Source: Promethearchaeota archaeon
GTDB lineage: Archaea; Asgardarchaeota; Hermodarchaeia; Hermodarchaeales; Hermodarchaeaceae
Assembly: GCA_048938385.1 (NCBI GenBank)
Contig: JBHLMG010000010.1
Coordinates: 1-64,000 of the forward strand
Length of the DNA: 64,000 bases
Direction of reading: 5' to 3'
Positions 2,260 through 59,500 of this stretch are shown piece by piece; the stretch's first letter is position 1, and every line of letters begins with the position of its first letter. The position numbers and the translations under genes were made by a program. The notes beneath the pieces were generated by a model. The model did not search any database. It was given only the letters and a program-made list of their open reading frames with translations, and was not told the origin of the DNA.

Positions 2260-2284
2260 GAATGAGGTAGTCTAACCCACCCAG

Positions 2285-2935: not shown

Positions 2936-3202
2936 TAGTGAGTTAGCGCCACACCTTCAAGCATTCTTCACCCTCTTCGGATTTTTATAGTATTCGAGTT
3001 TTTCGAAGCAGCGATGTAGTTTCTTGTTGTTTCCGCAATTAGGATTGTATTATTTTAAGCAAAACTCAAGATAAAATCAGTTAATCAATAATATGCGACC
3101 ACATGCCATTACAGAAGGATGTTCCACAAGAAGGATAGACTTTTCCCTGAGAATCCGACCAATAGCACAACATATTGGAATTTTGTCATTGAGTGAAGAA
3201 CC

Positions 3203-43372: not shown

Positions 43373-44314
43373 ATGGCGAAACGAATGGTTATTGCAATCG
43401 GAGGTAACTCCCTCATCAAGGATAAAACTCACATGACTGTTCCTGATCAGTATGTGGCAGCCATGGAAACCATGCCCCACATCGTGGATTTGGTCGAACA
43501 GGGTTGGGATATTGCAATTACTCACGGGAACGGACCGCAAGTTGGTTTTATCCTACGCCGCTCGGAACTCGCATCCCACGAATTGCATGAAGTCCCCCTT
43601 GATTTTTGTGGTGCTGACACCCAAGGTGCCATAGGGTATATGCTGCAACAAATTTTACACAACGAGTTCCGTCGCCGCCACCTCTCAAAACAATCTGTTA
43701 CAGTAGTCACACAGGTACTTGTGGATCGCAATGACCCTGCATTTACTAACCCTAACAAACCTATAGGGTCATTCATGGAACAATCAATGGCTGACCGCCG
43801 GAAAGCTGAAGGATGGCATGTCGTAGAAGATGCTGGTAGAGGATGGCGACGAGTGGTTCCTTCACCGATTCCTCAGCGTGTAATTGAAGCTCGTGCGGTC
43901 GTGAATCTGTTAGAGGATGGTTATATAGTCATTACTGCAGGAGGGGGTGGGATACCCGTAATTGAAAATGACCAGGGGAATTTAGAGGGCGTCGCTGCTG
44001 TCATTGATAAGGATCGGGCTTCAGCGCTGTTGTGTCAGGCAATTGATGCGAAGCGATTCATCATCTCTACTTCTATTGACAGAGTATACCTCAATTTCGG
44101 GAAGCCAAACCAAACCGCGATTGATCGAATGACCTTAAGTGAGGCAAAACAATACCTCAAGGAAGGACACTTTGCACCTGGATCTATGGCACCTAAAATT
44201 GAGTCCGTGATTGCTTTTATTGAAAATGGTGGAGAGCTTGCGATAATCACCAGTCCAGAAAATCTAGCCGCGGCCTTGGATGGTAAGGCAGGTACTCGTA
44301 TCGTCCCTGATTAG
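43373..44314 (+). CDS. arcC: Carbamate kinase
   Basis: AIGGNS, THGNGPQVG, KPIG, WRRVVPSP, GGGGIPV and GSMAPK. Confidence 0.95.
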   Translation: MAKRMVIAIGGNSLIKDKTHMTVPDQYVAAMETMPHIVDLVEQGWDIAITHGNGPQVGFILRRSELASHELHEVPLDFCGADTQGAIGYMLQQILHNEFRRRHLSKQSVTVVTQVLVDRNDPAFTNPNKPIGSFMEQSMADRRKAEGWHVVEDAGRGWRRVVPSPIPQRVIEARAVVNLLEDGYIVITAGGGGIPVIENDQGNLEGVAAVIDKDRASALLCQAIDAKRFIISTSIDRVYLNFGKPNQTAIDRMTLSEAKQYLKEGHFAPGSMAPKIESVIAFIENGGELAIITSPENLAAALDGKAGTRIVPD

Positions 44315-44386
44315 TAAAATTTTCAAAAGCTCTTGGCTTCATGCCTAACCAACAAGCCTTTTGAGTGATATGAGAGAGGAATCATT

Positions 44387-45217
44387 GTGATTTCTCAGAT
44401 TGTTGAAAAAGTAGCACAGTATCAAACGGAGGATGTTTTGCGCCTTCTTGAAAAGGTTCGGTTGATTCTCCGCCAAGAACCTCTCCTAGTACGACTTCCT
44501 AAAGCTCCTTTGGTCTTTATTGGTGACATTCATGGCGATTGGGAAGCAACACAAGCTCTTCTGCACCGTTATTGGGAAACGCCAACAGTACTTGTATTCT
44601 TAGGTGACTATGTGGACCGCGGACCTCATCAACTCGAAAACATCAATCTTTTGTACACTTTAAAGGTTCAACAGCCTCTACGTGTTATTCTATTACGGGG
44701 AAATCACGAACTTCCTAGTATTAACCGAAGCTATGGATTCTACAACGAAATTCAACGCGTTTATGGGAATATCAGCGAGAAATATTGGGAAGTCTTTGCG
44801 GAACACGCCCTAGCTGGGGTTAGTCAAGCACAAAGACTCTTTGCCGTGCATGGAGGCATTCCGCAAGGGCTTGACTCAATTGAAGAAATTGTAACACTTC
44901 CGCGTGAAATCGAACCAGAAAATCCCATTACGATTCAGCTGTTATGGAATGACCCAAAAGAAGGGTTGAAACGCTTTGCACCATCTATGCGTGGATCTCG
45001 AATCTATTATTTTGGCCAAGAGGTTACGGAAAAATTCATGACAATGAACAATCTAGATCTTATCGTCCGTGCCCATGAAGTCTTCCCCCAAGGAATTAAG
45101 GAGTTCTTTCAAGGTCGAATCGTGAGTCTATTTTCCTGTCGTAACTATCGTGGTCCGATTGCAGGAAAAGTCCTCTATGTAGATACCACAGGACAACGAA
45201 CTATTGTAGCAGTCTAA
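44387..45217 (+). CDS. PPP-family Ser/Thr protein phosphatase (PP1-like)
   Basis: GDIHG, GDYVDRG, RGNHE, VHGG, LLWNDP, RAHE and SLFS..NY. Confidence 0.92.
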   Translation: MISQIVEKVAQYQTEDVLRLLEKVRLILRQEPLLVRLPKAPLVFIGDIHGDWEATQALLHRYWETPTVLVFLGDYVDRGPHQLENINLLYTLKVQQPLRVILLRGNHELPSINRSYGFYNEIQRVYGNISEKYWEVFAEHALAGVSQAQRLFAVHGGIPQGLDSIEEIVTLPREIEPENPITIQLLWNDPKEGLKRFAPSMRGSRIYYFGQEVTEKFMTMNNLDLIVRAHEVFPQGIKEFFQGRIVSLFSCRNYRGPIAGKVLYVDTTGQRTIVAV

Positions 45218-45236
45218 CCATCATAGCATCTAATAG

Positions 45237-45575
45237 CTATAGTGCCCTGAGTAGATCAAGGCGAGTAAATGGTTTTTCTAAAAACCGGATACCCTCGTGA
45301 GCAGCAATCTCCCTACCTCGAAACTTCGTACCCATGAGAACGATTGTAAAACCCTCTTGTTTCAAGCTCTTGATGAACCCTGTCGTTTCAGCGTGGCCCA
45401 TCCAAAAATCAAGCAAGATTATTTTAGGAGGCGTCTCACAGGCATTGAGGGCATGGCGAAATGCCTCCAACTTTGCCAATCCTTGACACACAATGTATCC
45501 TCCTTCAATCAACATCTGTTCGAGGGCAAATCGAAAGGAAGCCTGTGGTGACACAACCATTACTGCTGTTGTCAT
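45237..45575 (-). CDS. Stand-alone atypical receiver-domain protein
   Basis: IILLDFWM (Asp) and FLEKPF (Lys) are retained, but the beta1 acidic pair is replaced (VMVVSP). Confidence 0.75.
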   Translation of the reverse strand: MTTAVMVVSPQASFRFALEQMLIEGGYIVCQGLAKLEAFRHALNACETPPKIILLDFWMGHAETTGFIKSLKQEGFTIVLMGTKFRGREIAAHEGIRFLEKPFTRLDLLRAL

Positions 45576-45579
45576 GATC

Positions 45580-47580
45580 TCACCCCGTGGAGTCGCTTTT
45601 TTGCCCTGATTTATGGAGGTATTTTTGCCCTCGTTTAGCTAAAGGGAGTAAAATCCGGAGCACTGTCCCATATTGAGCTTCTTCAGTTACACGGTTTTCA
45701 ATTCGGAATTTACCTCTAAAATAATCAACTAGAACGGGTACTACGAGGAGATTTGGATTTCCGCGTTGTGGTTCTTCTGGAATGAAGCGAAAAAGCAGCG
45801 ATTTTTCAACATCGCTCAGTACCCATTTCGGATGAGATATTTCCGTTTGCCAATACTCGACATCATATTCTGTGACTCGTGAAAGAGTTACAGCAATGGT
45901 GGTTGAAACGCCACTATCCACTTCTAACATATGACGAAGAATAGGAAGAAAGATACGGTTCACATATTGATTCGCAAATATGTAACAAGATTCCTCAGGA
46001 AGGTTTAGAGCAACCTTACTTGATGATTCAGGGATCATCTCTTGGAGTTCGGAGAGAAGCTGGGTCATAATCGAACATAAGTCTAGGCGTTGAAGTTCTG
46101 GTAAGGCTTGAGCATCAATGAGGCGGAGAAGTTGAATACTATCTTGGAGATATTGAGTTTCTGCAACTTCGACTTGAACCCGCTCGAATAGCTGTTTTTG
46201 TTCAAGGGAATCTGTGGTCTGATTTCCTAGCTCTGCGAGACTGAGAATGTTTTGCATTCGATTCGTAAGTTGATTCCCAAGCAAGGCAAAATAGTAGTCT
46301 AATCGTGACAGTTGCGATGTGGAAGGTAGACGAAGCCGGTGTTCAGAAATGGTGAAGCGTCTAAGTTCTGCCCGGACTCGTGCCATTTCAGTCAGGATTT
46401 GAATGAAAGTGTCGGATATCGCTTGGAGTTCAGAAAAGATGAGTCCAGGAGGTTCGGTGTAGGCTGTAATTCCAGGTTCAATGACTGCAGAGGTTTCAAT
46501 TTGTAAATTTTGAAGGGGGTGATTGAGTAGGAAAGAGAGGTAGTAACTGACAGCTCCACCTACCGTGAGGATAACGCCTAAAGTGATGAGGAACATGACA
46601 CCAATATTCTGGAGGGCTACAGTAGCCAGGGGCGCGGTGAGGTACAAAGATAAAATGTGATCGGTCACGGTGATGAATGCGATAGCACTGAGAGTAAGGA
46701 TGACTGCTAGAGTGATGATTAGGACAATGCGGTTGATCTGTGCATATCGGATGGACACAGGACGCCCCATGTGTGTTCCTTGTAAGCCTTCCATGAAGAT
46801 GTTCAACACGGCGATGAGGAAAGAAAAGATGGCAAAGAGGGTAAGAGTATCAGAGATAGAGCCAGAATAGAAAATGGTGTCAATCACGGTAAAACCCATG
46901 GCGTATTGGAAGGCAAATGCGGTATATGCTAAGACGAGGAGGAGACTCGCTGTCACTAATAGAAACCGACTGCGGGTACCTATGACTTCGCGAGGAGGAT
47001 TCCGGTTAAAGTAGAAGCTCCAGGCAAATATTGCAGTAAAAAACCCTACAAGTATTCTTAAGCCTAAGCCAATAGCTGGGATTATCGGAGGATGAAAGGT
47101 AAGGTTCATCTGGTAAGTTGAAAAAATGCACAGCAGAAAGAAGAGTGTGATGAGGAGATAACCAAGCAGTTGTCTAAAGGATCGACGCTGGGGTTCAATC
47201 GATACCATGGCGAATCCTACTAGGAGAACGATGTTGGCGATAGCTGAAAGATATGCGGTGCCATTGGGAAAGGTAATGGAAAACCCGAGAAAGAGGATTT
47301 CAACTAAGAGCCAAAAATTGGCAATTACTCCTATCAAACTTGTGATTGCAACGATAATGGCCAACCGGCGAGCGACTTGGTTGTGATAACCTAACAGTAA
47401 AAGACAGATGCCAAAAAGAGTTAGGAAGACGACGAAGTAGGCACTGATGAGATAGACCAACGCGAGTTCAGGGGTTAGAAATCCCAGAATCAGAGGAATA
47501 ACGGAAAGTGCAAAAGCGATGAGGAACGCAGCTGCCAAAACCCTGTGCGCGTCAGCCTTTAACCATTGACTAAATTTCAT
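45580..47580 (-). CDS. Multi-TM sensor with HAMP and degenerate histidine-kinase domains (pseudokinase)
   Basis: About nine TM helices, HAMP-like HPLQNL..SELQAI..F, and an HK-like scaffold ending GTVLRILLP. H, N and G box residues are absent. Confidence 0.7.
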   Translation of the reverse strand: MKFSQWLKADAHRVLAAAFLIAFALSVIPLILGFLTPELALVYLISAYFVVFLTLFGICLLLLGYHNQVARRLAIIVAITSLIGVIANFWLLVEILFLGFSITFPNGTAYLSAIANIVLLVGFAMVSIEPQRRSFRQLLGYLLITLFFLLCIFSTYQMNLTFHPPIIPAIGLGLRILVGFFTAIFAWSFYFNRNPPREVIGTRSRFLLVTASLLLVLAYTAFAFQYAMGFTVIDTIFYSGSISDTLTLFAIFSFLIAVLNIFMEGLQGTHMGRPVSIRYAQINRIVLIITLAVILTLSAIAFITVTDHILSLYLTAPLATVALQNIGVMFLITLGVILTVGGAVSYYLSFLLNHPLQNLQIETSAVIEPGITAYTEPPGLIFSELQAISDTFIQILTEMARVRAELRRFTISEHRLRLPSTSQLSRLDYYFALLGNQLTNRMQNILSLAELGNQTTDSLEQKQLFERVQVEVAETQYLQDSIQLLRLIDAQALPELQRLDLCSIMTQLLSELQEMIPESSSKVALNLPEESCYIFANQYVNRIFLPILRHMLEVDSGVSTTIAVTLSRVTEYDVEYWQTEISHPKWVLSDVEKSLLFRFIPEEPQRGNPNLLVVPVLVDYFRGKFRIENRVTEEAQYGTVLRILLPLAKRGQKYLHKSGQKSDSTG

Positions 47581-47690
47581 TGGGGATAAACCTCACCCAC
47601 CCAGCCTTTCACTAGGCGATAAACAGGACGACATTCTGAAGGCTAAAAAAGCTTTTCACACTGTCGCCATTCCTTGTAATTATCCTAGAA

Positions 47691-49742
47691 TTATGTCGGT
47701 GTACGTTGAGGACGCCGCCGGTACCGAAGGAAGTAAAAAACACCCAGACTAGCGATGATTAACCCAACTATAGCTCCTCCAGCTATCAGAAGAGTTGGAT
47801 TCAATTCGACAAGAAAGGTATAGTATACTCCGTTGTTATTGTCAACTACCACATTGTCAAAGTTATCTCTTGCAAGAATATAGAATCGTACCCGCGCTCC
47901 TGCCGGAAAGGGATCGAGGATAACACGATAAGTGTCCCCACTAACGACACGCATCAGGCGTGGCGTCCACAAAGAATAGTCCACACTGTAAAATAGAAGT
48001 ACTTGGTTAATTCCAGACCCTTTTACATCCTGAGAGATGGTGGCGGTGACTGTTATAGAATCTGAGTCCAGTGGTCGATAAGGTAAGAACTGAACTCCAG
48101 ATATGATAGGTGGATAACTTGTAACCGTTACTGTGACCATTGAAGAATTTTGCCGTCCATTGCCATCAATCACTCGGGCTTCCATTCGAACGCGTCCAGT
48201 GCCCTGCGCGGTCCAGTTGAAGTAATAGACTTGGTTAGCAATGTACTGATAGCAGTTTTGCCACAAGGAAGCATTTACTCGTACTTGAATAGTCGGGATA
48301 TACCGATTGTCAGGATCTGTGACATTCACCCAAATAGTGTACTCTACACCTTCGTCAAGAATATCGTCATCTTGGGGAGCGTGAATACTACAATAAATTC
48401 CCTTATCAAACACAACCGAAGTTGAAGTTTCAGCAATCCAGCCTTCAACATCATAAGCCCGTGCTCTCATTCGAGTAACCCCATAAAAACTGGTGGCATC
48501 GAACATGTAGGTACAGTGAGTTGAATTTAATCCAGCCGTTACATTAATCCAAGGACCATCATCGATAGAAAGCTCCACATATTCAACATCGCCAAGTGCG
48601 TCATCAATTGATAAGACTACTTCAAAGGGATTCGTGGGAGCCAAATAACTTCCATAGCTGGGAGTGATAAAGTCAATTTCAGGGAATCCGACTTCGGTTG
48701 AAACAATGGTTGCAAAATCTGCAACCGCAGCCGCAGCAGTCTTTGTGGTTAGCGCTCCAAGTTCGGTAGAGTATTCGGGTTGTCCAAGGTAATCTTCACT
48801 GCTATGAATCCATGGATTGTCCCATCCTTCGTATTCGAAGAACCAGACCGCGGGGATATTTCTATCCCAAAAGGGTTTGTGATCGCTAGATAGCCATAAG
48901 GGTTGCAAATTAGCTTGGACTGGAGCATCAATCACAGATTGGCCAATGCCCTCAGCGTGCTGCGCAAACCATGCGCTGTCTCCACCGTTATGGACGATAT
49001 GCACCTTCCAATTCTCTGGAGCAGAGGGGCTATCCCATAATATCATGTCAAAATTGTACATGATTGTCACAGAGACATTTTCCTGGAAAAGCTTGTTAAC
49101 AAAAGCTTCACTGCCCACAAGACCCTGCTCCTCCGCGTTGAACGCCACGAACATTATGGTATAGTTATACCTGTATTGGGAGAGAACTCGTGCCATTTCA
49201 AGGACTGCACTAATCCCAGATCCATCATCATCAGCACCTGGCGATGCGATTGGATAGGTATCCAGGTGAGCACCGACGATAATTGTCGCATTATTGTGAA
49301 TACTCCCACCTTTCAGTGTGCCTATTACATTGGGTTGACCCGTGCTAAAAGAGTGGAGTTCAACCTCCAGTCCATAGCTCTGAAATTTGTTTGCGATATA
49401 TTCCACAGCGCGACTGTTTCCAGGAGTTCCCCAAAAGCGGGATCCAATGGTCCCAGAAATATAACTCAATTTGCTATTATAACTCTCGGTAGTGATTTGG
49501 TCGATGATGTTTTGGATTTCAGCGGGAGCATTTGGTATTGGTGGATTATGAGTATTCCAACTCTGGAGTTGGACATTACTTCCTGTTGAGCGAAGCGATG
49601 TAGGAGAAGTTATTGAGTCGGAAGTTGCCCCCTGTTCAATCCTTAACCCTGCATATGGGTCTTGAGAAGGAGGGATGATAGGAATGGTTCCACCGAGCAT
49701 AATGACCAAGAAGAATGTGAAAAGGAGGGATGACCGGTGCAT
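47691..49742 (-). CDS. Membrane-anchored M28 aminopeptidase with Ig-like domains
   Basis: GAHLD, PGADDDGSG, AEEQGL.GS, DM, SDH and IHS motifs. Signal peptide and C-terminal TM followed by RRR. Confidence 0.9.
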   Translation of the reverse strand: MHRSSLLFTFFLVIMLGGTIPIIPPSQDPYAGLRIEQGATSDSITSPTSLRSTGSNVQLQSWNTHNPPIPNAPAEIQNIIDQITTESYNSKLSYISGTIGSRFWGTPGNSRAVEYIANKFQSYGLEVELHSFSTGQPNVIGTLKGGSIHNNATIIVGAHLDTYPIASPGADDDGSGISAVLEMARVLSQYRYNYTIMFVAFNAEEQGLVGSEAFVNKLFQENVSVTIMYNFDMILWDSPSAPENWKVHIVHNGGDSAWFAQHAEGIGQSVIDAPVQANLQPLWLSSDHKPFWDRNIPAVWFFEYEGWDNPWIHSSEDYLGQPEYSTELGALTTKTAAAAVADFATIVSTEVGFPEIDFITPSYGSYLAPTNPFEVVLSIDDALGDVEYVELSIDDGPWINVTAGLNSTHCTYMFDATSFYGVTRMRARAYDVEGWIAETSTSVVFDKGIYCSIHAPQDDDILDEGVEYTIWVNVTDPDNRYIPTIQVRVNASLWQNCYQYIANQVYYFNWTAQGTGRVRMEARVIDGNGRQNSSMVTVTVTSYPPIISGVQFLPYRPLDSDSITVTATISQDVKGSGINQVLLFYSVDYSLWTPRLMRVVSGDTYRVILDPFPAGARVRFYILARDNFDNVVVDNNNGVYYTFLVELNPTLLIAGGAIVGLIIASLGVFYFLRYRRRPQRTPT

Positions 49743-49868
49743 GTATATCACAATCTAAAAAGTCAGATAATAGTCGAAAAACACCTAATTTTATGTTATA
49801 TTCTTTCCGATTCAAGCAAAGCAGGAAATCTCCTGCCCTTACTAAATCTGAAACACATTAATCCAAGA

Positions 49869-50405
49869 CTACTCCTGTTTTAGTTCAGAAACTAAAATCA
49901 TTTCTGCGAGTTTATCGAAAACTTCGCTTACTTTGAAATCGGTCTTTGCACTGGTTTCAAAATAGGGAATGTTCTTTTCCTTCGAATAATTCTGTGCTTC
50001 CTCAATAGAAATAGTACGAGTGTCATCTAAATCAATCTTGTTCCCCACTAGCACAACTGGCACATCAAGCCCCGAATAGCGACGAATTTGATCATACCAT
50101 TTCTCAGCATTGACAAAGCTTTGCCGCATGGTGATATCGAAGACTAATAATGCCCCCTTGGCTCCACGGAAATAAATCGGACGCACACCTGAGTAGCGCT
50201 CCTGACCTGCTGTATCCCAGGCCTGAATCTTTACAATCTGGTTGTTAATCGGAATAGATTTCACGATAAAATCGACACCAAGAGTGGAAATGTACCCATC
50301 TGTGAAGGTGCCGTAAGCAAATCGTTGGGTAAGGCTAGTTTTACCAACCTCAGCGTCACCAACTAGAACGATCTTAAAAAGATAATCGAACGCATCGTGC
50401 GGCAT
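49869..50405 (-). CDS. Rab-like small GTPase
   Basis: FDYLFKIVLVGDAEVGKT, TLGVDF, WDTAGQERY, YFRGA, LVFDIT, GNKID and ETSAK. Confidence 0.95.
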   Translation of the reverse strand: MPHDAFDYLFKIVLVGDAEVGKTSLTQRFAYGTFTDGYISTLGVDFIVKSIPINNQIVKIQAWDTAGQERYSGVRPIYFRGAKGALLVFDITMRQSFVNAEKWYDQIRRYSGLDVPVVLVGNKIDLDDTRTISIEEAQNYSKEKNIPYFETSAKTDFKVSEVFDKLAEMILVSELKQE

Positions 50406-50524
50406 GCCCAGAACCCATACAACAGTTATTATCTATGCTTAATGCTGCAGAGGTGTCACTTAATCTTTTGGAATCTTGACAGTTTCATCAGGTTCCTTTG
50501 CAGAGTAATAAAAAGGAGAACACC

Positions 50525-51685
50525 TCATCGGGGAAAGTATTCAAAACCGCGGTAACCCTTCCGGCGTTGAAGTTTTTGCATATCGAAGAGTTTTTTGAGT
50601 TCGTTGGATGCAGTCCCCTTCGTAATGCCAACTTCCTCAGCAACGACAGCAGAGGTCACTCCATCCTTTTCCTTTGCTAAGGCGAGGATTTCACGTTGTG
50701 TCGCTGTTAATTCGTCGAATTCTTCAAACCAGTCTTCATCCTCCCCTTGGGGACTAGATTCGATAAATCGTGTCGGATCTTGTATACTTGGAATCAGAGT
50801 AGTAACTGGTGGAGGACTAGGTTGGAGTTTTACGACTTGATGTACAAAGTCTCGAGTGATTCGATCACCGGAGGGAGTATCTTCTTGAAATGCCTGTGTA
50901 ATGATGTTTTCACAAAAACGAAGGACACTCCGAGGATAACCTCGAGTATGGAGATGCATTTCATCTAAAGCCTCTTCTGTAAAGGGTGTAAGCCCCTGTC
51001 CCCCATAGAATTCGATACGTTGTCGAATGAGTTGCTCCATCTCCTTGCGGGATAACACCTCCAACCCATTCTCGCCTTCGGTTTCCAAGAAGAACTGTAA
51101 GGTAACTCGCTCTGCAAGTGGAGGAAAGATGCTCGTTAAGGCCTTGGTAAATCCAGTTAATCCAGCAATATACACCACGACTGCAGGCATGTCGCTAAGT
51201 ACACGGAGCCACCGAACAGTTTTTCGCTTCTCAACCTCGACCGGCTCTGTATCCTCTTTGGTCAAGGCTAGGCTCTGACCATCATCTATCAGTAAAATAA
51301 TTCGTCGTTTACTCTGTTTATGGAACTGCCGCACCCTTTTTGCAAGATCATCGATGAGGGTAGGGACAGTATTAACCTTAAGCATCAGCTCTTCCCGCAT
51401 GAGATTCATGAGCGTGTTGCTTAAGATTGTGGAATCTAGGGGTTCAGAAACTAAACAGGGAACTAGGGCTGGAGATTCTGCAAGGTAGTCATGGAACCAC
51501 CGCAAGATGTGGGTTTTCCCTGTTCCGCGACCCCCTTCAATGAGAATTATGTTACCTGTGCGGAGTTGCACCACTAAAGGATTTAGTAATCGTTTTTCAG
51601 CAGCAAAGACTTCTGGCATGACATCGATCCGAAAGGGGAAATCGGACCAACCAAGGCTTTTGAGACGTTCATCGAAAGCAAACAT
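50525..51685 (-). CDS. ExeA-like AAA+ ATPase with C-terminal winged-helix domain
   Basis: LGW..FPF N-terminus, Walker A GGRGTGKT, Walker B LLIDD, GYPR sensor-2, C-terminal LTATQREIL..GITKGTASNELKKL. Confidence 0.83.
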   Translation of the reverse strand: MFAFDERLKSLGWSDFPFRIDVMPEVFAAEKRLLNPLVVQLRTGNIILIEGGRGTGKTHILRWFHDYLAESPALVPCLVSEPLDSTILSNTLMNLMREELMLKVNTVPTLIDDLAKRVRQFHKQSKRRIILLIDDGQSLALTKEDTEPVEVEKRKTVRWLRVLSDMPAVVVYIAGLTGFTKALTSIFPPLAERVTLQFFLETEGENGLEVLSRKEMEQLIRQRIEFYGGQGLTPFTEEALDEMHLHTRGYPRSVLRFCENIITQAFQEDTPSGDRITRDFVHQVVKLQPSPPPVTTLIPSIQDPTRFIESSPQGEDEDWFEEFDELTATQREILALAKEKDGVTSAVVAEEVGITKGTASNELKKLFDMQKLQRRKGYRGFEYFPR

Positions 51686-51763
51686 GTTTAGTCACCGGCG
51701 ATGGTGTGATTCTTGGATGCATCTCCAATTGTGTGAAAGCCACTCCTCCCAGTCTACTTCAGT

Positions 51764-52045
51764 CTACGCATCGGTAGTAATTCCGTCACCCATACGACCC
51801 AGGAAATTGTTATAGGCGAATGGACAGACGACCTCGATACCAGCGCTGGGATCGAACTCTACCTGTTCTTTGCCAATTGAGCAGAAGAAGGCACAGTATC
51901 CACCATCTACGAGTCGACCGGTCCGCTGACACACAAAGGTTCGAGCGGTGGGGGTAATTAATTCCAGAACCGCGTTGGCGTCGAGTTGTGCAATTGCTTC
52001 TTCAAGTCGGAATTTTGGTTGAAGCGCTTTGATTTTGTCACTCAC
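51764..52045 (-). CDS. Small Cys-containing hypothetical protein (C-x11-C-x3-C-x18-C)
   Basis: GAGGTGA RBS and GTGA overlap with the upstream gene. Four Cys. Confidence 0.7.
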   Translation of the reverse strand: MSDKIKALQPKFRLEEAIAQLDANAVLELITPTARTFVCQRTGRLVDGGYCAFFCSIGKEQVEFDPSAGIEVVCPFAYNNFLGRMGDGITTDA

Positions 52046-52245
52046 GCATTCTTCACCTCGCGTTGCTGCTTCGCAAGCAGTTCATCTTCCCGTAGTTGTG
52101 CAATTGTTCGAGCAATCCGGACACGCAGCGTAGCCGTCACCAGTGGCATCGCTTCTTGGAGCTGCTCTGCGATGCTAGGCGCTTGGAGACGACTGTTAGC
52201 ATCCGGTCGAGCTCTCCCAGATGCTGTTGCTTCGTCGATTGCCAT
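52042..52245 (-). CDS. Small helical hypothetical protein
   Basis: First gene behind a BRE/TTTATAT box near 52301-52317; translationally coupled to the next gene. Confidence 0.62.
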   Translation of the reverse strand: MAIDEATASGRARPDANSRLQAPSIAEQLQEAMPLVTATLRVRIARTIAQLREDELLAKQQREVKNA

Positions 52246-52574
52246 AGCTCATCGTCCCTCATTGAATCTCATTAACATTCATTCTTTTTCATTTTACTAC
52301 ATATAAAGCTTCGCTTTCCCCTCTTTGCAGGTTTCAAGCGCTAAGAAAAGCCCATCATAGGGGGCACACTGAAAAAAGTTGGACTTGAAATCAGGGCGTG
52401 TGAAATATAATTCCAAAATAAACGGTCGAGAAGGCGTTTTTTCTCAAAAAGAAAATTTAGTCGTTCATTTATGCTATCAAATGAAACGGAAAACCCCCAA
52501 AATTGTTCTAGTCTTTGGCGCGCATTCTCCCTATTCTGGAATCAAGAATAAGATCCAACAGGATAATGGCGCCG

Positions 52575-53657
52575 TTAGCGTTTTCGACGGCTGGACTCGG
52601 TAGTCGGCTGAGCCTTTTCCTCACCCTCCACCTCTGAGCTTTGCTCAGATTCCAATGTATGGGACAGTACGGATTCTTGTGCAAGAAACGCAAGGAGCCG
52701 AAATCTTTCTGAATCGAAATGGAGGAGACTTCGTAATTGCTCTAGAGTGAAGTGTTGGGCACTACGGCGAAAATCGATGAAGCTATTTAGTTGTGCTCGG
52801 AGCGTTTCTAGTTGGAGTTCAAGGAGTTTTGCTTGAAGACGGCCATCATCACTTTGAGTAAGGGCTTGTTTGGCTAGATCCATACTGGGTTGATGAAGGG
52901 GAGCAAGGTACACAGGAGGAGTCTTATTCAGGTTGAGAAATAGATACTGCTCTAGGTTATCTGGAGTAGTTAAGGTGCGGTAGACTTCTTCGGTAACCCC
53001 GAGTAGGGTTGGTCGTTTGTGGGGTTGGTTTTCACGACTTTCTAGAATTCCTTTTGCAGTTTCTAATTCCGAGATTCCTGGCATGTTGGGAACCGTGAAG
53101 GGGAGGACTTGGTCAATAGCTTCACTCAGTTGTTCGAAGGTCTTGTAATCAACACCCGTTATGATAATTGCATTACCTACAAGGATGTTTAGAAGCAAAA
53201 CATCGAGGGCATCATTAAATTTTTCGAGAATATACTCAGTTTGACTGATTCGTTTGCGTGCTACTTGCGAACGTTCGTTGTGAGCTTTCAACGCTGAGAG
53301 AATAATTGGGATGAAGGCCTGAAAGGGTTTAACATCGCCACTCCATTTCTTTAGCTGAATTTCATATTGGTTATAGAAGAGCACATTGAGGCTGTGAAGA
53401 ACGGCTTGAACTTCGAGTTCATCAGCGTTGCCATCAGCAAGCCCAACTGTAATGAGTGGAGCTAGGACATCATAGTGGAACCGATACTCGCCTGCACCGA
53501 TGGTTCGTACCTCTTCGGCGATGGCTTCGTGTCCAAATTCTCGTATCGCAGTAAGAAGTCCGGTTAAGAGGGTTTGTTCGAGTTTGACAACTGGAGAGGT
53601 ATGAGAAACTAGGGTTTCACCCGATGAGAGGAAGATGAAAACAGAATGTAGTGTCAT
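52575..53657 (-). CDS. Longin (uDENN) plus cDENN-like (folliculin-like) protein
   Basis: N-terminal LHSVFIFLSSGE..LLTGLLTAIREFG longin. Central LLLNILVGNAIIITG..IDQVLP resembles folliculin-type cDENN. Confidence 0.7.
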   Translation of the reverse strand: MTLHSVFIFLSSGETLVSHTSPVVKLEQTLLTGLLTAIREFGHEAIAEEVRTIGAGEYRFHYDVLAPLITVGLADGNADELEVQAVLHSLNVLFYNQYEIQLKKWSGDVKPFQAFIPIILSALKAHNERSQVARKRISQTEYILEKFNDALDVLLLNILVGNAIIITGVDYKTFEQLSEAIDQVLPFTVPNMPGISELETAKGILESRENQPHKRPTLLGVTEEVYRTLTTPDNLEQYLFLNLNKTPPVYLAPLHQPSMDLAKQALTQSDDGRLQAKLLELQLETLRAQLNSFIDFRRSAQHFTLEQLRSLLHFDSERFRLLAFLAQESVLSHTLESEQSSEVEGEEKAQPTTESSRRKR

Positions 53658-53844
53658 GATCGAACGCCCTACAGCCGTAATCCTTTCAGGGGGTTTGTGC
53701 TGTTAGCGTTCGTCCTTTGGCAATTAAAGGTTTCCTCAGTAATATGAAAAATCCAGCTCTTTTGATAGAACAGTAAGCATAGTCTTAAATCCATTAAGGG
53801 TGAAAATTCTCCAAAGAGTCTTCAAAACTTTATGGTGTTAATTA

Positions 53845-54912
53845 ATGTCGATCGATAATCTTCGACCTCTCTTGAAAGAATTATCTGAAATAATTGGCAT
53901 CTCAGGGCATGAATCAAATGTTCGTGAGTTCATCCAAGGAGAAATAGAGGACTTCGTGGATGACATTTGGGTAGACCCGTTGGGAAACCTTTTAGCTGTG
54001 CAGAAGGGCTTGAAGGACCATCCACGAATCCTGCTTGACGCTCATGTTGATGAAATCGGATTCATTGTACGATACATACACGAGAACGGATTTCTTCGGA
54101 TAACACCCATTGGGGGGTGGGATCCACGAATTCTGCCCGGTCACCGGGTTATTATAAAGCCTCAAGGATCGAAAGCCTCACACAAAGTGTTTGGCGTACT
54201 TGGCGCATCACCACCACATCTGACCACGGCAAAACAGCGTGAAAAGGTGATCGCGATTGAAGACCTCTATGTAGATATTGGCGCATCCTCTCACCAGGCC
54301 GTGACCGACATGGGGATTCGAATAGGAACACCATTGACAGTATGGCAACCCTTCATCGAAATGCCAGACAAGATCGTCTCAGGAAAAGCCTTCGATGATC
54401 GCGTTGGATGTTTAATAATCATTGAAGTGCTTCGACGCCTTAAGAAAAAAGGAAAAAATACACCCACGGTAGTCGTGAATTTTGCGGTGGGTGAAGAGGT
54501 TGGGGGTCGTGGAGCACGCACTGGCGCGTATACATTAGACCCTGATGTAGCGCTTGCTCTCGAGTGTACTTCAGCAGGAGATATGCCCGGAATTCCAAAG
54601 CATTTGTCTCCTACACAACTTGGTAAAGGCCCTGCTATTACCGTAGCTGACCGAACCCTGATTGTCCACCCCAAGGTACTCGCCACATTAGAAGATGTGG
54701 TGCAGAAAGAGAATATACCCTTTCAGTATAAACAACCCCTGGGTGGTGGAACGGATGGAGGACCGATTTCCCAAAGTCGAAAGGGGGTCCCTACAGGCGT
54801 AGTATCCGTGCCATGCCGGTACATTCATTCTGCCATCTCTCTGCTATGTTTAAGTGATATTGCATCCACTATTGATCTGGTGTATGGGTTCATTCAAACT
54901 TGGCAACCTTGA
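53845..54912 (+). CDS. M42 family (TET) aminopeptidase
   Basis: DAHVDEIG, GKAFDDRVG, EEVG.RGA, GGTDG and RYIHS. Confidence 0.93.
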   Translation: MSIDNLRPLLKELSEIIGISGHESNVREFIQGEIEDFVDDIWVDPLGNLLAVQKGLKDHPRILLDAHVDEIGFIVRYIHENGFLRITPIGGWDPRILPGHRVIIKPQGSKASHKVFGVLGASPPHLTTAKQREKVIAIEDLYVDIGASSHQAVTDMGIRIGTPLTVWQPFIEMPDKIVSGKAFDDRVGCLIIIEVLRRLKKKGKNTPTVVVNFAVGEEVGGRGARTGAYTLDPDVALALECTSAGDMPGIPKHLSPTQLGKGPAITVADRTLIVHPKVLATLEDVVQKENIPFQYKQPLGGGTDGGPISQSRKGVPTGVVSVPCRYIHSAISLLCLSDIASTIDLVYGFIQTWQP

Positions 54913-54925
54913 AGAGGTGATTCTT

Positions 54926-55339
54926 TTGGGAATTCCCACAGTTGATGAAGTCCTAGGCGTTGATAGGAATGTGTTTTTAGCAACGGCAGAAGGCGACCAA
55001 CCTCGTGTCCGCCCCGTTACCATGGTCAAGAACGAGGGATCATTCTATGTTATTACGGGTTCAGAAAACGCAAAAACGCATCAGATCCGTAAGAACGCAA
55101 AGGTCGAAGTAGTCACTTTAGTAAAACATGAAGAACACACAGGATATGTGCGATTTGACGCAATTGCGAAAATAATAACCGACTCGATTATCCGAGAACG
55201 CGTTGCAAAAGCTACATCCTTTTTTTCTGAGTACTTTGACTCCCCCAACGATCCTAAGTATGCCTTGATCCATCTAATTCCTCAAAAAGGAGAATACCTC
55301 AAACCTGGACAGATGTACCCAGAGCCCTTTACTCTCTGA
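54926..55339 (+). CDS. Pyridoxamine 5'-phosphate oxidase-like (FMN split-barrel) protein
   Basis: FLATAEGDQPRVRP..K..QI..N.KVE. TTG start 5 nt after GAGGTGA. Confidence 0.85.
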   Translation: MGIPTVDEVLGVDRNVFLATAEGDQPRVRPVTMVKNEGSFYVITGSENAKTHQIRKNAKVEVVTLVKHEEHTGYVRFDAIAKIITDSIIRERVAKATSFFSEYFDSPNDPKYALIHLIPQKGEYLKPGQMYPEPFTL

Positions 55340-55511
55340 TATCGTTTATGAGTTTGACATTCATTGGCGAGGATTAAAGAGAGATATTTTCGTTAATTTA
55401 GGGCGTATAGGGAAGCTATTTCTAGGTGAGCGTTGTAGATTTGGTTAGTTGGGACTCTAAGAGGTTGACTGCAGAAAGTGTGGATCGGTGTGGATACGGT
55501 GATGTGAAGCG

Positions 55512-57671
55512 ATGGAACAGAATGACATCGACGGCGAGATCGCAGGTAGGACAGGGCAACCTACTCCTAAACTCGAAGGTTACAACATCAAAATCCAAGC
55601 GGAACAACTTCCACTATATAGCGGTTCTGTGGATTATTGGCGGATACCAACCTCTTATTGGACGAGCGTTCTTGACCGGATCAAGGGTATGGGGTTTCGT
55701 TTCATATCCCTGACAATACCATGGAACATCCATGAAGTAGCCAGCGATCTTTTTGATTTTGGCACTACAAACAAGCAACGAGACTTAGAAGGCTTCCTTG
55801 GATTATGTCAGGAGAGGAACCTTTTTGCAATAGTTCGTCCCGGACCTTGCGTCAATGCTGAGCTAGTTTATTACGGCTTCCCAAAACGCATCCTTTACGA
55901 TAAGGATATTCAAGCAGTGTCTGCTTTTGGAACCCGAGTGGTTGTTCCAGCAATTCCAACTCCATTTCCCATGCCTAGTTACGCTAGCGAAAAATTCTAT
56001 GATGAAGTTAGCAAATACTTTGACGCCCTCTGCCCTATTCTTGCCCGAAACCTCTCACCAGGCGGACCCATTGTCGGAGTCCAGATCGATAATGATGTTC
56101 CCCTGCTATTTCGAAACGGTCCTTTCAGCGCAGACTATTCTTCCTCTGCCATCAGATGGTACCACGAATTCTTGGCTGGCAAATACCCCTCAATTACTGC
56201 CTTAAACCGAGCATATCGTACCAGGTATAATGCCTTTGAAGATATAGAACCCCCTCGCGCTCTCGCGACCACTGAACGTGAAGCCCTCCCACGGTATTTA
56301 GATTGGATGGAATTCAAAGAGTACTATGTAGGTCTGGCATTAAGCGTTCTTGCGAGCCTTCTTTGGTCTAGAGGCGTTCGAGGAATTTTTACATACCACA
56401 ATAGTCGAAGCAACTTCCCAACACTTCCCTTGAATGTATCACGAACTGAACGAGAACTAGACATCCAAGGCGTGGGTTTATACCTTGACAAATCTCAATA
56501 CGAAGAGATCCGACGCGGTGCCCTATACATGAGCACCGTGAGTCGTTTCCCCTTCCTTTCTGAAGTAGGGATAGGCACTTGGCCAGGAGGTCCAGTGATT
56601 CCCATCCAGGATTCCCAATTTGCTCTACTTGTTGCACTGATGAATGGTGTTCGTGGTTTTAATGCACATATGCTGGTTGAACGGAATAGATGGATTGGCG
56701 GACCCCTCAGTCCATCGGGTTCAACGCGAGATCAACCTTATGCGTTCTTACATCGATTGCTGACAATTCTAGACACAATTGAGTTTCCCACTCTTCAACG
56801 GAACATACCTGTTCTCTTGCTTCGGAATTTTGAGTACGAACGCCTGTACGGATTGTGTCAAAATGGTAATTGGTTCACTGATCTTTTAGACATCCCTGCT
56901 GAATTACTCCTGGATAATCGCACATTCAGTTACACTGAAACAATTCAGAAAGCATACCCTGACCTCTGGAATGCGTTCTATTGGGGATTAACCCGTTCTA
57001 AAATCCCTTTTGCTATTGGCGATACCGAGATGGATCGACCAGCTCTAAGTCACTATCAAGCCATCTTTCTCCCTACATTTGATTTCATGTCAGGAGAACT
57101 GCAAGAGAAAATCGTAGAGTATATACAGCGCGGTGGCACAGCCATTATAGGCCCTGAACTTCCCTATCTAGGTGTGGATATGCGGGGATGCACTATCCTG
57201 TCAGATCAGACAGGCGTACAGGTTCCAAATACACGGCGACCCTTAGTTGGTTTCCATGATCCCTTCCAAATTATCGAAGATCGAGTTCGGGTTGGGAACC
57301 AGACAGCAGGAAGAATCCAACCCCATGGGAATGGCTACATCATTTTCCTCGGTATTACACTGCCACCGACTACAGACCGTGAGGGTGCAGTCGATGCTGA
57401 GTGCGTCATCACCCAATCAGTGAACCATCTAAAAATTCAAGCAGAAGGAGATATTCAAAATCCGTCGGTAGATGAAATCTATTGGGGAACCCGAGCACCA
57501 CGGGTGATTTTTCAAGCGAACACAACTAATCAACCACAATCGGTGAGAGTAAATATCGCTCAACGAGCTCAACTCCGAAATCTCTGGACTGGCGAACAAT
57601 TAACCCAGCGTGGTCCACAAGAGATTGCCCTTGATCCATATGAAACTCTACTCCTAGAGGTGATCCGATGA
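55512..57671 (+). CDS. Beta-galactosidase-like glycoside hydrolase (GH35/GH42)
   Basis: DYWR..W..LDRIKGMG, IPWNIHE, VRPGP.VNAE and GGPIVGVQIDND. Confidence 0.83.
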   Translation: MEQNDIDGEIAGRTGQPTPKLEGYNIKIQAEQLPLYSGSVDYWRIPTSYWTSVLDRIKGMGFRFISLTIPWNIHEVASDLFDFGTTNKQRDLEGFLGLCQERNLFAIVRPGPCVNAELVYYGFPKRILYDKDIQAVSAFGTRVVVPAIPTPFPMPSYASEKFYDEVSKYFDALCPILARNLSPGGPIVGVQIDNDVPLLFRNGPFSADYSSSAIRWYHEFLAGKYPSITALNRAYRTRYNAFEDIEPPRALATTEREALPRYLDWMEFKEYYVGLALSVLASLLWSRGVRGIFTYHNSRSNFPTLPLNVSRTERELDIQGVGLYLDKSQYEEIRRGALYMSTVSRFPFLSEVGIGTWPGGPVIPIQDSQFALLVALMNGVRGFNAHMLVERNRWIGGPLSPSGSTRDQPYAFLHRLLTILDTIEFPTLQRNIPVLLLRNFEYERLYGLCQNGNWFTDLLDIPAELLLDNRTFSYTETIQKAYPDLWNAFYWGLTRSKIPFAIGDTEMDRPALSHYQAIFLPTFDFMSGELQEKIVEYIQRGGTAIIGPELPYLGVDMRGCTILSDQTGVQVPNTRRPLVGFHDPFQIIEDRVRVGNQTAGRIQPHGNGYIIFLGITLPPTTDREGAVDAECVITQSVNHLKIQAEGDIQNPSVDEIYWGTRAPRVIFQANTTNQPQSVRVNIAQRAQLRNLWTGEQLTQRGPQEIALDPYETLLLEVIR

Positions 57672-58465
57672 GACGACTAGCTGAACAGTATGAGTTACTA
57701 GACATTGACCCCATGCAATGGGTGAATCTGCTTTCCTTACTCCCTGAGTTAACTGCGGAAAAAGGGATTCTCTACTTATTATTCCACGGGTCAGAAATTA
57801 TTCAAGCGTTCCATTCTTTGCAGGGTATTCGTCCTGATCTAACAGGTCCCTTTTCCACTCCATCGATTGTGATTCAGCAGCTCCAACAACGAGAAGAGGT
57901 AGATGCCGTCATTCTACTTGAGCAGGGACTTGCTGTTTACCTGCTTGCCAAGATGCAGGGAGCTTTCGCACCAGAAATGGATATCATGCAGTTTTTTGAA
58001 GTCGCTCAGGAAAGTATTGAAGAGGAGAAGGGACGACGATTATTTGTTTGGCCTGATGAATTCTGGGATAAGGGAACTTTCGGATTCTTAGGGCGAATTC
58101 ACAAGCTCATAGAAGCCTTACCACTTGATTTTGTCTTAGCGTTGGCAGTTTTTGAGGAAAACCGGATCTGGGCTAGTCTTATTATCCAGCGGTCTGAGGG
58201 ACAAATCCGAAGAATCACCACCTCACAACACTTAGAATCGTTTAACCTGAACTTTGAAGACTGGCAGACGGAGTATATTATGTTCAATCAAGCAGTTACT
58301 CAACTATTTGGTCGCCCCAACCTGGGTATATTTACTGATGATGAAACGCTTCGATTTCTTATCAAAAGTGAATCTCCGTTGGAGTTTTTACGTCAAGCTT
58401 ATAAAAAAGGGCAAATCATCATTGATCCGATTCCCCCTTCAATTCGTAACAGGCTTCAGCGTTAA
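57668..58465 (+). CDS. Hypothetical protein
   Basis: ATGA overlap with the glycosidase and a GAGGTGA RBS. Confidence 0.75.
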   Translation: MRRLAEQYELLDIDPMQWVNLLSLLPELTAEKGILYLLFHGSEIIQAFHSLQGIRPDLTGPFSTPSIVIQQLQQREEVDAVILLEQGLAVYLLAKMQGAFAPEMDIMQFFEVAQESIEEEKGRRLFVWPDEFWDKGTFGFLGRIHKLIEALPLDFVLALAVFEENRIWASLIIQRSEGQIRRITTSQHLESFNLNFEDWQTEYIMFNQAVTQLFGRPNLGIFTDDETLRFLIKSESPLEFLRQAYKKGQIIIDPIPPSIRNRLQR

Positions 58466-59391
58466 CGGCGTCGACGAATGAACAGTCCGATTAAGATGAT
58501 GATAACACAGTACATCACAACACTGAGAATTAAGAGTAGTTCGGGGGGAAGAACTAGCCAGTATCCTACAGGGGGACCACCTGGTTCAACCTGAAGGGAC
58601 ATGTCCTCGGGATAAGCATCATCGATCACTGGGATAGGAGCTGTGTGATTGCTCATCACGGCATAATATGGGAAAGCAGGAAAGACCACCGAGGAAATGT
58701 ACTCCCGAGTTAAGGGTGTAGCAAATGCAAAGGCTTCCTCCACCACCACTTCCCCATCATCATCGGCATCGGCTGAAGCGTTCTGAAACGCATTGGTTAA
58801 GAAGTGATTGAATACATCACCAATAATTGGAAGCCCTTCTTCGGGTAACCCCGCCCAAGAATACTCGCCCACCTGTGAGGATGCCAAGTGCACATGACCT
58901 GCAGAATCAGTTCGCACTGGATTAATCATCGCCTCTGACCCACAAGCAGATACGACCAAGACTTTTTCCTGGCTAGCTAAATTTAACCAGCCTGATGAAA
59001 ACCAATTCTCCCAGTGCATTTCGTTTAGTATCCAATTTCCATGGGCAAAGATGTAAAAAAGAACAACATCATTAGCGTCCGCGTTTTGTGCGAGGAAGTG
59101 AAGTGCTGCTTCACCCACGGATTGCGTAAGCGAGTCCTGATAGATTTGAATGTGATGGGTTTGCCATCCCAGCACAAGGAGTGTTGAGATCCATTTCTGG
59201 ACATCGCTGAAACCGGTGGGCAAATCGGAATTCGTGCCAGGGTAATCATCCATTTCTAAAAGGACTGCCCAACCTTCTCTGGGATTATTTGGTAATTGAC
59301 TAGTTACGATTCTTGGCAGGAGTAGAACTCCAAGCATCATGAAGAGGACGCTCAGTTGTTTTATCAAAAGTCTTCGGTGATATCTTGCCAC
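58462..59391 (-). CDS. Membrane-anchored caspase-fold (clan CD) cysteine peptidase
   Basis: WAVLL..DDY, VLFYIFAHG and VLVVSACGS dyad motifs. Signal peptide from GTG 59391 and C-terminal TM followed by RRRR. Confidence 0.82.
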   Translation of the reverse strand: MARYHRRLLIKQLSVLFMMLGVLLLPRIVTSQLPNNPREGWAVLLEMDDYPGTNSDLPTGFSDVQKWISTLLVLGWQTHHIQIYQDSLTQSVGEAALHFLAQNADANDVVLFYIFAHGNWILNEMHWENWFSSGWLNLASQEKVLVVSACGSEAMINPVRTDSAGHVHLASSQVGEYSWAGLPEEGLPIIGDVFNHFLTNAFQNASADADDDGEVVVEEAFAFATPLTREYISSVVFPAFPYYAVMSNHTAPIPVIDDAYPEDMSLQVEPGGPPVGYWLVLPPELLLILSVVMYCVIIILIGLFIRRRR

Positions 59392-59500
59392 AGAATCACA
59401 TTCAATAGATACATCTTGAGGCGCTGTTATATTAATAACCCGTAAGAGGTCAGAAGAAAAAAGGGGAAACTGCACAAAAAGCAACTTGAAAAATTATGGT

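Follow-up and report, generated by a model that had tools for sequence, protein, structure and literature searches.

The locus described here lies in a 64,000-nucleotide stretch of DNA from a Promethearchaeota archaeon of the class Hermodarchaeia (GenBank assembly GCA_048938385.1, contig JBHLMG010000010.1, positions 1 to 64,000), which we refer to as the window. It consists of 5 co-directional open reading frames (ORFs) on the minus strand, here called genes A to E (Table 1). Gene A encodes a protein in which a longin domain is fused to a DENN domain according to structure prediction, and gene E, located 2.2 kb away, encodes a Rab-like small GTPase, with genes B, C, and D in between. The intergenic gaps were 329 nt between A and B, 78 nt between C and D, and 119 nt between D and E. 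An earlier examination of the letters alone, hereafter the sequence-only reading, had reported the 5 minus-strand genes with their identities as well as the gaps of 329 nt and 119 nt, and all of its ORFs, coordinates, identities, and both distances were recovered in our analysis. The genome that holds the locus is 2.48 Mb in size and about 90% complete; the window is located on contig C37, and a second gene for a longin-DENN protein, here called A', is located on contig C33. The family of Hermodarchaeota to which the genome belongs is referred to as f1 and contains 2 genera, g1, which includes the window genome, and g2; a relative from Guaymas was also included in the comparisons.

The longin-DENN protein A and the Rab-like GTPase E

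No match was obtained for the A protein in a Pfam search at E-values of up to 1 or in a search against NCBIfam, and the sole match to the Folliculin_C profile (PF16692) in the genome, which falls inside A, was weak (E-value 0.24, 11.5 bits). An AlphaFold2 model of the protein, which was built from 24 homologues, had a mean predicted local distance difference test (pLDDT) score of 73.5, with values of 79 to 95 in residues 136 to 339 and of 41 to 60 in residues 1 to 50. The modelled topology is that of a beta-beta-alpha-beta-beta-beta-alpha domain, followed by an alpha/beta domain and then helices, such that the N-terminal longin (uDENN) fold and the central alpha/beta DENN domain with its helical dDENN part could both be recognized. 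A Foldseek search of the PDB with the model returned DENND10, FLCN, DENND1A/B, C9orf72, or SMCR8 as the top 11 matches, with E-values ranging from 2e-5 to 9e-4.

Alignments with VIA-align placed the 2 halves of the protein separately. Residues 2 to 127 aligned with the longin domain of Sec22b at a Z-score of 14.9 (124 aligned residues, root mean square deviation [rmsd] 2.5), and the N-terminal part aligned with many further longins at Z-scores of 10 to 14. Residues 136 to 339 aligned with the C-terminal DENN domain of FLCN (3v42) at Z 11.4 and with DENND1B (3tw8_A) at Z 11.3, in both cases with 179 aligned residues and an rmsd of 4.1, and with DENND1A (6ekk_B) at Z 10.8. The full-length model gave Z-scores of 12.7 to DENND10 (8p0v_M), 12.0 to FLCN (6nzd_H), and 12.0 to SMCR8 (6lt0_B), and these scores do not separate an FLCN type from a DENND1 type for the modelled protein. 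A shape search of the ESM Atlas with A returned only longin-domain clusters. As modelled, A belongs to the DENN-module proteins by structure only and not by curated sequence models. The description of A as a longin plus folliculin-like DENN protein in the sequence-only reading thus held at the level of the fold, where AlphaFold2, Foldseek, and VIA-align agreed on the presence of the DENN domain, but not at the level of the curated models.

DENN proteins classically act on Rabs, as exemplified by DENND1A/B, the DENN-type guanine nucleotide exchange factor (GEF) for Rab35, and the longin-DENN proteins FLCN-FNIP2 and C9orf72-SMCR8 form heterodimeric GTPase-activating proteins (GAPs) for RagC/D and Arf/Rab. 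All solved longin plus DENN proteins to which A was matched are regulators of GTPases or members of GTPase-linked complexes. With DENND1A/B in complex with Rab35 (PDB 3tw8, 6ekk), A shares the two-lobed arrangement of longin and DENN/dDENN in about 360 amino acids, the absence of a GP motif, and the fold of the DENN half (Z 10.8 to 11.3), and Rab35 was among the top matches of E; however, A is only 10% to 14% identical to DENND1A/B in sequence and has no Pfam DENN match. The likeness to FLCN-FNIP2, C9orf72-SMCR8, and DENND10 extends over the full length of the protein (Z 12.0 to 12.7), and the second longin-DENN paralog provides a possible partner.

A GP motif located ahead of the second strand of the longin domain, beside the arginine finger, is the mark of FLCN, SMCR8, C9orf72, and NPRL2 (PMC12290439). 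This motif of the GAP-type longins was not found in A, its relatives, or its paralogs; the consensus at the corresponding site was FIFLxSG(E/L)xLVS, and the glycine was followed by glutamate or leucine in 13/13 aligned sequences, including the paralogs. Furthermore, there was no invariant arginine in the longin part across the A family and its paralogs (alignment A4), and the residue at R39 was either R or Q. A differs from the GAP longins of FLCN, SMCR8, and C9orf72 in the missing GP motif and apparently also in the conserved arginine finger, as well as in that the neighbouring GTPase is Rab-like and not Rag-like. Since the GP motif is missing and no longin arginine is invariant, action as an exchange factor or as a platform is likelier than action as a GAP. 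If A acts on a GTPase, it would more probably do so as a GEF or platform of the DENND1-like or FNIP-like kind than as a GAP of the folliculin type.

Gene E produced the strongest Ras-family match in the genome (Pfam Ras, E-value 2.7e-58), and its 60 best matches in the PDB were all to Rab, Ypt, or Sec4 proteins, with E-values ranging from 2e-46 to 9e-42 (Rab35, 2e-44). The motifs GDAEVGKTS, WDTAGQE, NKID, and SAK as well as T41 are retained, so that G1 to G5 and the glutamine of switch II are intact. The segments LGVDF, KIQAW, YFRGA, and LVFDIT resemble the motifs RabF1, F2, F4, and F5, with RYSGVR as a weaker candidate for RabF3; the RabF motifs were reportedly defined by Pereira-Leal and Seabra in 2000. 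No C-terminal cysteine for geranylgeranylation was found in E, which ends in VSELKQE, or in any of its orthologues. Because the cysteine motif is missing, we classify E from its sequence as Rab-like and not as a canonical eukaryotic Rab. A complex prediction for A (alignment A1) together with E (alignment A2) gave a score of 0.00; it was run without controls and counts neither way on binding.

Putative transcription units and gene order

The upstream regions were aligned for 5 orthologous loci. Boxes resembling a transcription factor B recognition element (BRE) and a TATA box were identified upstream of A, B, and E and none were seen before C or D. The box GAAACCTTTAAT upstream of A was conserved in the window genome and in its relatives G095 and G100, with similar TTTAAT boxes in g2 and in the Guaymas relative, and occurs in 2 copies in the genome. 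The other 2 boxes are present in a single genome copy each: GCGAAGCTTTATAT upstream of B was identical throughout genus g1 and related in L004, and TTAAGTGACAC upstream of E was conserved in g1 and, in part, in g2 and L004. A further conserved element, TGACACYTC, adjoins the TATA-like box of E. Gene D is preceded by a ribosome-binding-like motif, GGTGA, without a TATA box. Since conserved boxes were present only before A, B, and E, while the start of C overlaps the stop of B and D follows a GGTGA motif, the alignments point to a division of the run into 3 units, A, B-C-D, and E, each with its own putative promoter. The conserved boxes also bear out a caveat of the sequence-only reading, namely that the gaps suggest separate promoters.

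The spacer between A and B contains blocks that were invariant in an alignment of 8 genomes, namely a GC-rich inverted repeat, GGCGC...GCGCC, located just 3' of the stop codon of A, and a TGGAAT-N3-ATTCCA palindrome, which is degenerate in the window genome. A comparison of the boxes and the palindrome revealed no motif common to the upstream regions of A, B, and E. There was no covariation in the inverted repeats between A and B, and a search of Rfam over positions 49000 to 54500 gave no match. It was also noted that the leader ahead of B is rich in ATGA repeats.

Table 1. Location of the genes and sequence features discussed in the text (positions without a prefix refer to the window)
Feature	Location	Strand	Description
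Gene A	52575-53657	minus	360 aa; longin (about residues 1-133) and DENN (about residues 136-339); Hermodarchaeota-specific
Gene B	52042-52245	minus	67 aa; without known family; opens the B-C-D unit
Gene C	51764-52045	minus	93 aa; start overlaps stop of B by 4 nt (GTGA)
Gene D	50525-51685	minus	386 aa; ExeA-like AAA_22 P-loop ATPase with C-terminal winged helix-turn-helix
Gene E	49869-50405	minus	178 aa; Rab-like small GTPase
Box GAAACCTTTAAT	53723-53734	minus	BRE/TATA-like; 65-76 nt upstream of the ATG of A
Box GCGAAGCTTTATAT	52301-52314	minus	promoter-like; 57-70 nt upstream of the ATG of B
Box TTAAGTGACAC	50453-50463	minus	TATA-like TTTAAG followed by a conserved part; located 48-58 nt upstream of the ATG of E
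A-B spacer	52246-52574	minus	inverted repeat, T-tracts, palindrome; insertion site in congeners
A/B insertion, G095	L046:6963-8402		TnpB/IS605 OrfB-like gene
A/B insertion, G093	L048:1194-2099		gene for 301-aa multi-pass membrane protein
A/B insertion, G104	L047:1349-2227	opposite	gene for 292-aa protein with C-terminal anchor
Syntenic block	43373-60415		about 13 genes
X409, G095	L046:2686-3894		downstream of Rab gene
X409, G100	L049:5323-6531		downstream of Rab gene
X409	L003:11579-12808		downstream of Rab gene
X409	L004:12098-13381		downstream of Rab gene
Sister-group locus	L001:6945-12703		longin-GTPase fusions of 292 and 273 aa, Arf/Roc-like; longin-DENN gene between them
Paralog A'	C33, about 74.3-75.4 kb; L037:8360-9433	minus	second longin-DENN gene
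Partner of A'	L037:7861-8439		conserved 183-192-aa helical protein
Kinase-like gene	45580-47580		666-aa membrane protein
Second Ras-family gene	2285-2935	minus	Pfam Ras, E-value 1.7e-32
Surroundings of second Ras-family gene	1630-4357		TPR protein gene and histone-deacetylase-family gene
Longin protein gene	13454-15565	plus	703 aa
Outgroup Rab-like loci	L074:5145-6576; L075:5173-6606		Rab-like gene and 238-247-aa familyless neighbour

The order A-(B)-C-D-E was kept in every Hermodarchaeota locus examined, which included both genera and the Guaymas relative; orthologues of B were identified in genus g1 and in L004 and were not found in genus g2. The amino acid sequence identities of the orthologues had floors of 51% for A, 56% for D, and 61% for E, below which there was a sharp fall, such that A, D, and E share a narrow phyletic range as well as the same contigs. 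Orthologues of A were 51% to 100% identical, with 51% to 55% for the Guaymas relative. When a profile of A was run over 400 genomes of the phylum, matches along the full length were confined to family f1, and elsewhere the longin half alone was matched, and pattern scans of metagenomes and genomes returned close orthologues only.

Proposed pairing of A with E and the alternatives

We consider the run to represent 3 neighbouring transcription units in which the Rab-like protein E is the foremost candidate for a client of A, a tentative reading to which we assign a probability of roughly 0.38. The A protein, encoded by the first unit, would most likely, to judge by its fold, use its longin/DENN surface to bind a small GTPase, either as an exchange factor or as a non-catalytic platform. 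The B-C-D unit would probably constitute a separate ATP-driven DNA-binding or regulatory module, and the third unit would provide a functional, non-prenylated Rab-like GTPase. Gene E may ancestrally have been co-transcribed with the gene for a helical protein, here called X409, which would since have been lost from the window genome. What the analysis establishes are the folds, domain identities, motifs, gene order, and phyletic range, while the promoters, an interaction between A and E, and its sense, GEF or GAP, are inferred. Since A is modelled with a longin-DENN fold and E is a Rab-like GTPase, a relation of regulator and client between the 2 proteins would be biologically sensible.

A neighbourhood of this kind has been described from other Asgard archaea. 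The study by Liu et al. (bioRxiv 10.1101/2020.10.19.343400; Nature 2021) reports DENN domains with paralog expansions in Asgard genomes and, for some Heimdall genomes, longin-DENN proteins resembling FLCN. It also predicts a conserved operon that comprises genes for a Roadblock (LAMTOR1-like) protein, a Rab-like GTPase, and a DENN protein, the last of which was proposed to be a GEF. Subsequent publications also include DENN folds in their lists of Asgard and prokaryotic proteins. The window locus resembles the operon in that a gene for a DENN fold is located near a gene for a Rab-like, not Rag-like, GTPase, and it resembles the Heimdall proteins in that the longin is fused to the DENN domain as in folliculin and in the proposed role as regulator of a GTPase. 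It differs from the operon in that it has no separate Roadblock/LAMTOR-like gene, in that the B-C-D genes, with an AAA_22 ATPase carrying a winged helix, stand between the DENN and Rab genes, with separate predicted promoters, and in that the A family is confined to Hermodarchaeota, with only its longin half matching other Asgard genomes by sequence. The concept of a DENN gene beside a Rab-like gene in Asgard archaea has accordingly been in print since 2020/21, and the locus is a Hermodarchaeota-specific case of a known neighbourhood.

Further afield, a homologue of A in a sister group (P0038, 44% identical) was flanked directly by 2 genes for longin-GTPase fusions in an otherwise unrelated neighbourhood. 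Downstream of the DENN gene at this locus are a gene for a tandem-GTPase-SCP2 protein of 781 amino acids, at a distance of 1.4 kb, and one for a PD-(D/E)XK-like protein; genes B, C, and D are not present. With all contexts of the A family considered, including those given below, a genomic tie between this DENN family and GTPase genes is no more than suggestive.

A number of observations weigh against the pairing of A with E in particular. With regard to the protein itself, the Pfam DENN model (PF02141) had no match anywhere in the genome, neither the DENN nor the Folliculin models of Pfam gave A a significant family-level match, and the longin half was modelled with low pLDDT. With regard to the locus, separate promoters are predicted and T-tracts follow A, and the junction between A and B carries 3 different insertions of 1.4 to 2.7 kb in 3 species of the same genus, so that it looks like a hot spot for insertions. 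The closest neighbour of E in the relatives is the gene for X409 and not gene A. Moreover, a segment of the window of at least 17 kb and about 13 genes is colinear with a contig from g2. There are also 32 Ras-family genes in the 2.48 Mb, so that 7% to 9% of random positions lie within 2.7 to 3.8 kb of one, and because of this the adjacency of A and E is, taken alone, not beyond chance. Elsewhere, the DENN gene of a second sister lineage (P0037) has no GTPase gene immediately beside it, although the contigs are short, and no Ras-family gene is located within 8 kb of paralog A'.

The colinear segment also contains genes for M42 and M28 peptidases, a GH35/42 glycosidase, and a kinase-like protein. 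Synteny had been put forward in the sequence-only reading as evidence to look for across Asgard genomes, and the gene order is indeed kept within one family-level clade of Hermodarchaeota, but its conservation is not specific to the 5 genes, since the unrelated flanks are equally well kept across a stretch of 17 kb or more. Of the linkages observed, that between D and E, and not that between A and E, is the most stable, because B-C-D-E was never broken (uninterrupted in 8/8 loci examined, with D-E gaps of 71 to 208 nt), whereas the A/B junction on one side and the region downstream of E on the other both vary.

Almost as likely as the pairing of A with E is an explanation by background synteny, in which A regulates other GTPases, such as the longin-GTPase fusions, and its closeness to E has been passively kept. 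The embedding of the 5 genes in a block with unrelated genes, the 3 predicted promoters, the 3 independent insertions, and the base rate given above are all consistent with this explanation. It further agrees with the identity of the neighbours in the sister group, which are Arf/Roc-like fusions and not orthologues of E, and with at least 8 fusion-type matches among the 32 Ras-family genes of the window genome itself. Against it stand the observation that A and E co-occur, 2 to 5 kb apart, in every genome that has either of them, the classical action of DENN proteins on Rabs, with 3tw8 among the structural matches of A, and the DENN plus Rab-like operon reported for other Asgard lineages by Liu et al.

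The claim of the sequence-only reading that the DENN protein regulates this Rab consequently survives in its structural premise, that is, the fold of A and the Rab-like nature of E, and is weakened with regard to the tie to E by the 3 units, the unspecific synteny, the insertions, and a paralog without a GTPase neighbour. Its further suggestion of a tie to a DNA-binding ATPase fits with the unbroken B-C-D-E arrangement, which is the single observation in its support. Since the genomic evidence does not raise the pairing of A and E above background synteny, the locus is a candidate and not a discovery.

We think it unlikely that the longin-DENN fold of A serves in a role other than GTPase regulation, for example as a scaffold or cargo adaptor, and that the Rab neighbour is irrelevant. 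The lack of family membership at the sequence level, the absence of a GTPase gene beside A', and a report that DENN-like folds are widespread outside eukaryotes (PMC13392464) would agree with such a role, but all of the solved proteins with a longin and a DENN domain that matched A are tied to GTPases, and small GTPases are numerous in the genome.

Slightly less probable again is a single extended, Hermodarchaeota-specific pathway that includes A, D with B and C as its small partners, E, and ancestrally X409, and in which a Rab switch is coupled to the AAA+ regulator with its winged helix, D either controlling the promoter of E or being controlled by E in its GTP-bound form. It would account for the contiguity of B-C-D-E at short D-E distances between variable flanks, for the shared phyletic range of A, D, and E, and for the TGACACYTC element beside the TATA-like sequence upstream of E. 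However, we know of no precedent for a link between ExeA-like ATPases and Rabs; the D family is found only in this clade and therefore offers no independent context, GTPase genes but none of B, C, and D are present at the DENN locus of the sister group, and no motif is common to the boxes before A, B, and E. If true, the pathway would connect a small-GTPase switch directly with the control of genes in an archaeon that has no endomembranes, with X409 as an accessory effector shed by some species.

The least probable of the alternatives is a heterodimeric GAP resembling FLCN-FNIP, in which A and A' would associate through their longin and DENN domains and act on a Rag/Arf-like or Rab-like GTPase: genomes of family f1 hold both paralogs, with the exception of a few fragmented assemblies, full-length A matches FLCN and SMCR8 at Z 12.0, and the only, albeit weak, Folliculin_C match of the genome is located in A, but A and A' both lack the GP motif, share no invariant longin arginine, are encoded on different contigs, and A' has a coupled 192-aa partner of its own.

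To our knowledge, cognate pairs of regulators and GTPases are almost entirely unassigned in Asgard archaea. Such pairs bear on the origin of the eukaryotic Rab/DENN system, and the preferred pairing of A with E offers a small, soluble, and tractable candidate, for which A', with no GTPase neighbour, is a natural control.

Intervening genes, X409, and other neighbours

Gene B had no match to a known family in Pfam, NCBIfam, or PADLOC. The C protein contains 4 cysteines (C39, C51, C55, and C74) that were invariant in 9 orthologues and is probably metal-binding; it had no Pfam, NCBIfam, or usable Atlas match. In the D protein, residues 43 to 181 matched AAA_22 (PF13401) with 32.9 bits, above the cut-off of 27, the Walker A (GGRGTGKT) and Walker B (LLIDDG) motifs are present, and several winged-helix matches of the MarR/HTH_24-like kind were obtained at residues 324 to 376. 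The match to TIGR03015 (1e-13, 51.4 bits) was far below the equivalog cut-off of 324.5, and D is thus a relative, not a member, of this family of XrtA/PEP-CTERM ATPases. The AAA_22 match and both Walker motifs are shared with the ExeA/GspA-like ATPases (TIGR03015; TniB/ORC-like P-loop NTPases), from which D differs in its low TIGR03015 score, its C-terminal winged helix, and its location next to genes for 2 small familyless proteins. No relative of D was found in the PDB by sequence, and its orthologues, which are 56% to 100% identical, are confined to the clade.

X409 is an all-helical protein of 400 to 427 amino acids without known family, the gene for which starts 19 to 40 nt after E in 14/18 other f1 genomes. 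It is missing from the window genome (best tblastn E-value 0.04) and from G106, where the contig is intact. We regard X409 as a candidate effector of the Rab-like protein E. Its AlphaFold2 model consists of long helices throughout (pLDDT 80.7); a Foldseek search gave nothing at E-values of up to 1e-3, the best VIA-align score, Z 11.0 to generic helical bundles, is at the level of noise expected of helical models, and Atlas features went no higher than 0.77. No meaningful match to a defence system was found by PADLOC for A, B, C, D, or X409. In genome G105, both A and X409 look broken, but a co-decay of the 2 genes was discarded as assembly noise, because on the same contig the M28, M42, and GH35 genes are likewise split and Ns occur.

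Paralog A' is 22% to 26% identical to A and was identified in almost every f1 genome. Its 3' end overlaps the gene for a conserved helical protein, which is 54% identical between lineages, and it adjoins DUF354 and DegT genes. Across 400 genomes of the phylum, the Pfam DENN model (PF02141) produced one match, which was below threshold, the model being blind to Asgard DENN domains. The best partial matches in families f26 and f27 were rejected as DENN proteins and represent longin-GTPase fusions. These fusions (L038, L039, L043, and L045) are about 300 amino acids long and are present in 2 copies per genome in Asgard genomes of 1.3 to 2.0 Mb.

The nearest outgroup Rab-like proteins, from Heimdall/Asgard genomes, are 49% to 53% identical to E and have the C-terminal sequence FSFWQKA. 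A conserved familyless protein of 238 to 247 amino acids is encoded directly upstream of them, and no relation between this protein and A was detected with hhalign. Within the window, a second Ras-family gene is located between the genes for a TPR protein and a protein of the histone-deacetylase family. The kinase-like gene is present in the syntenic block of all relatives, and the presence of the M28 peptidase gene, which is located between this gene and the Rab gene, varies by species. Finally, the 703-aa protein contains an N-terminal longin, as indicated by a weak Pfam Longin match and a match to the A profile, and proteins of about 680 to 735 amino acids that share its N-terminus recur in several Asgard families.

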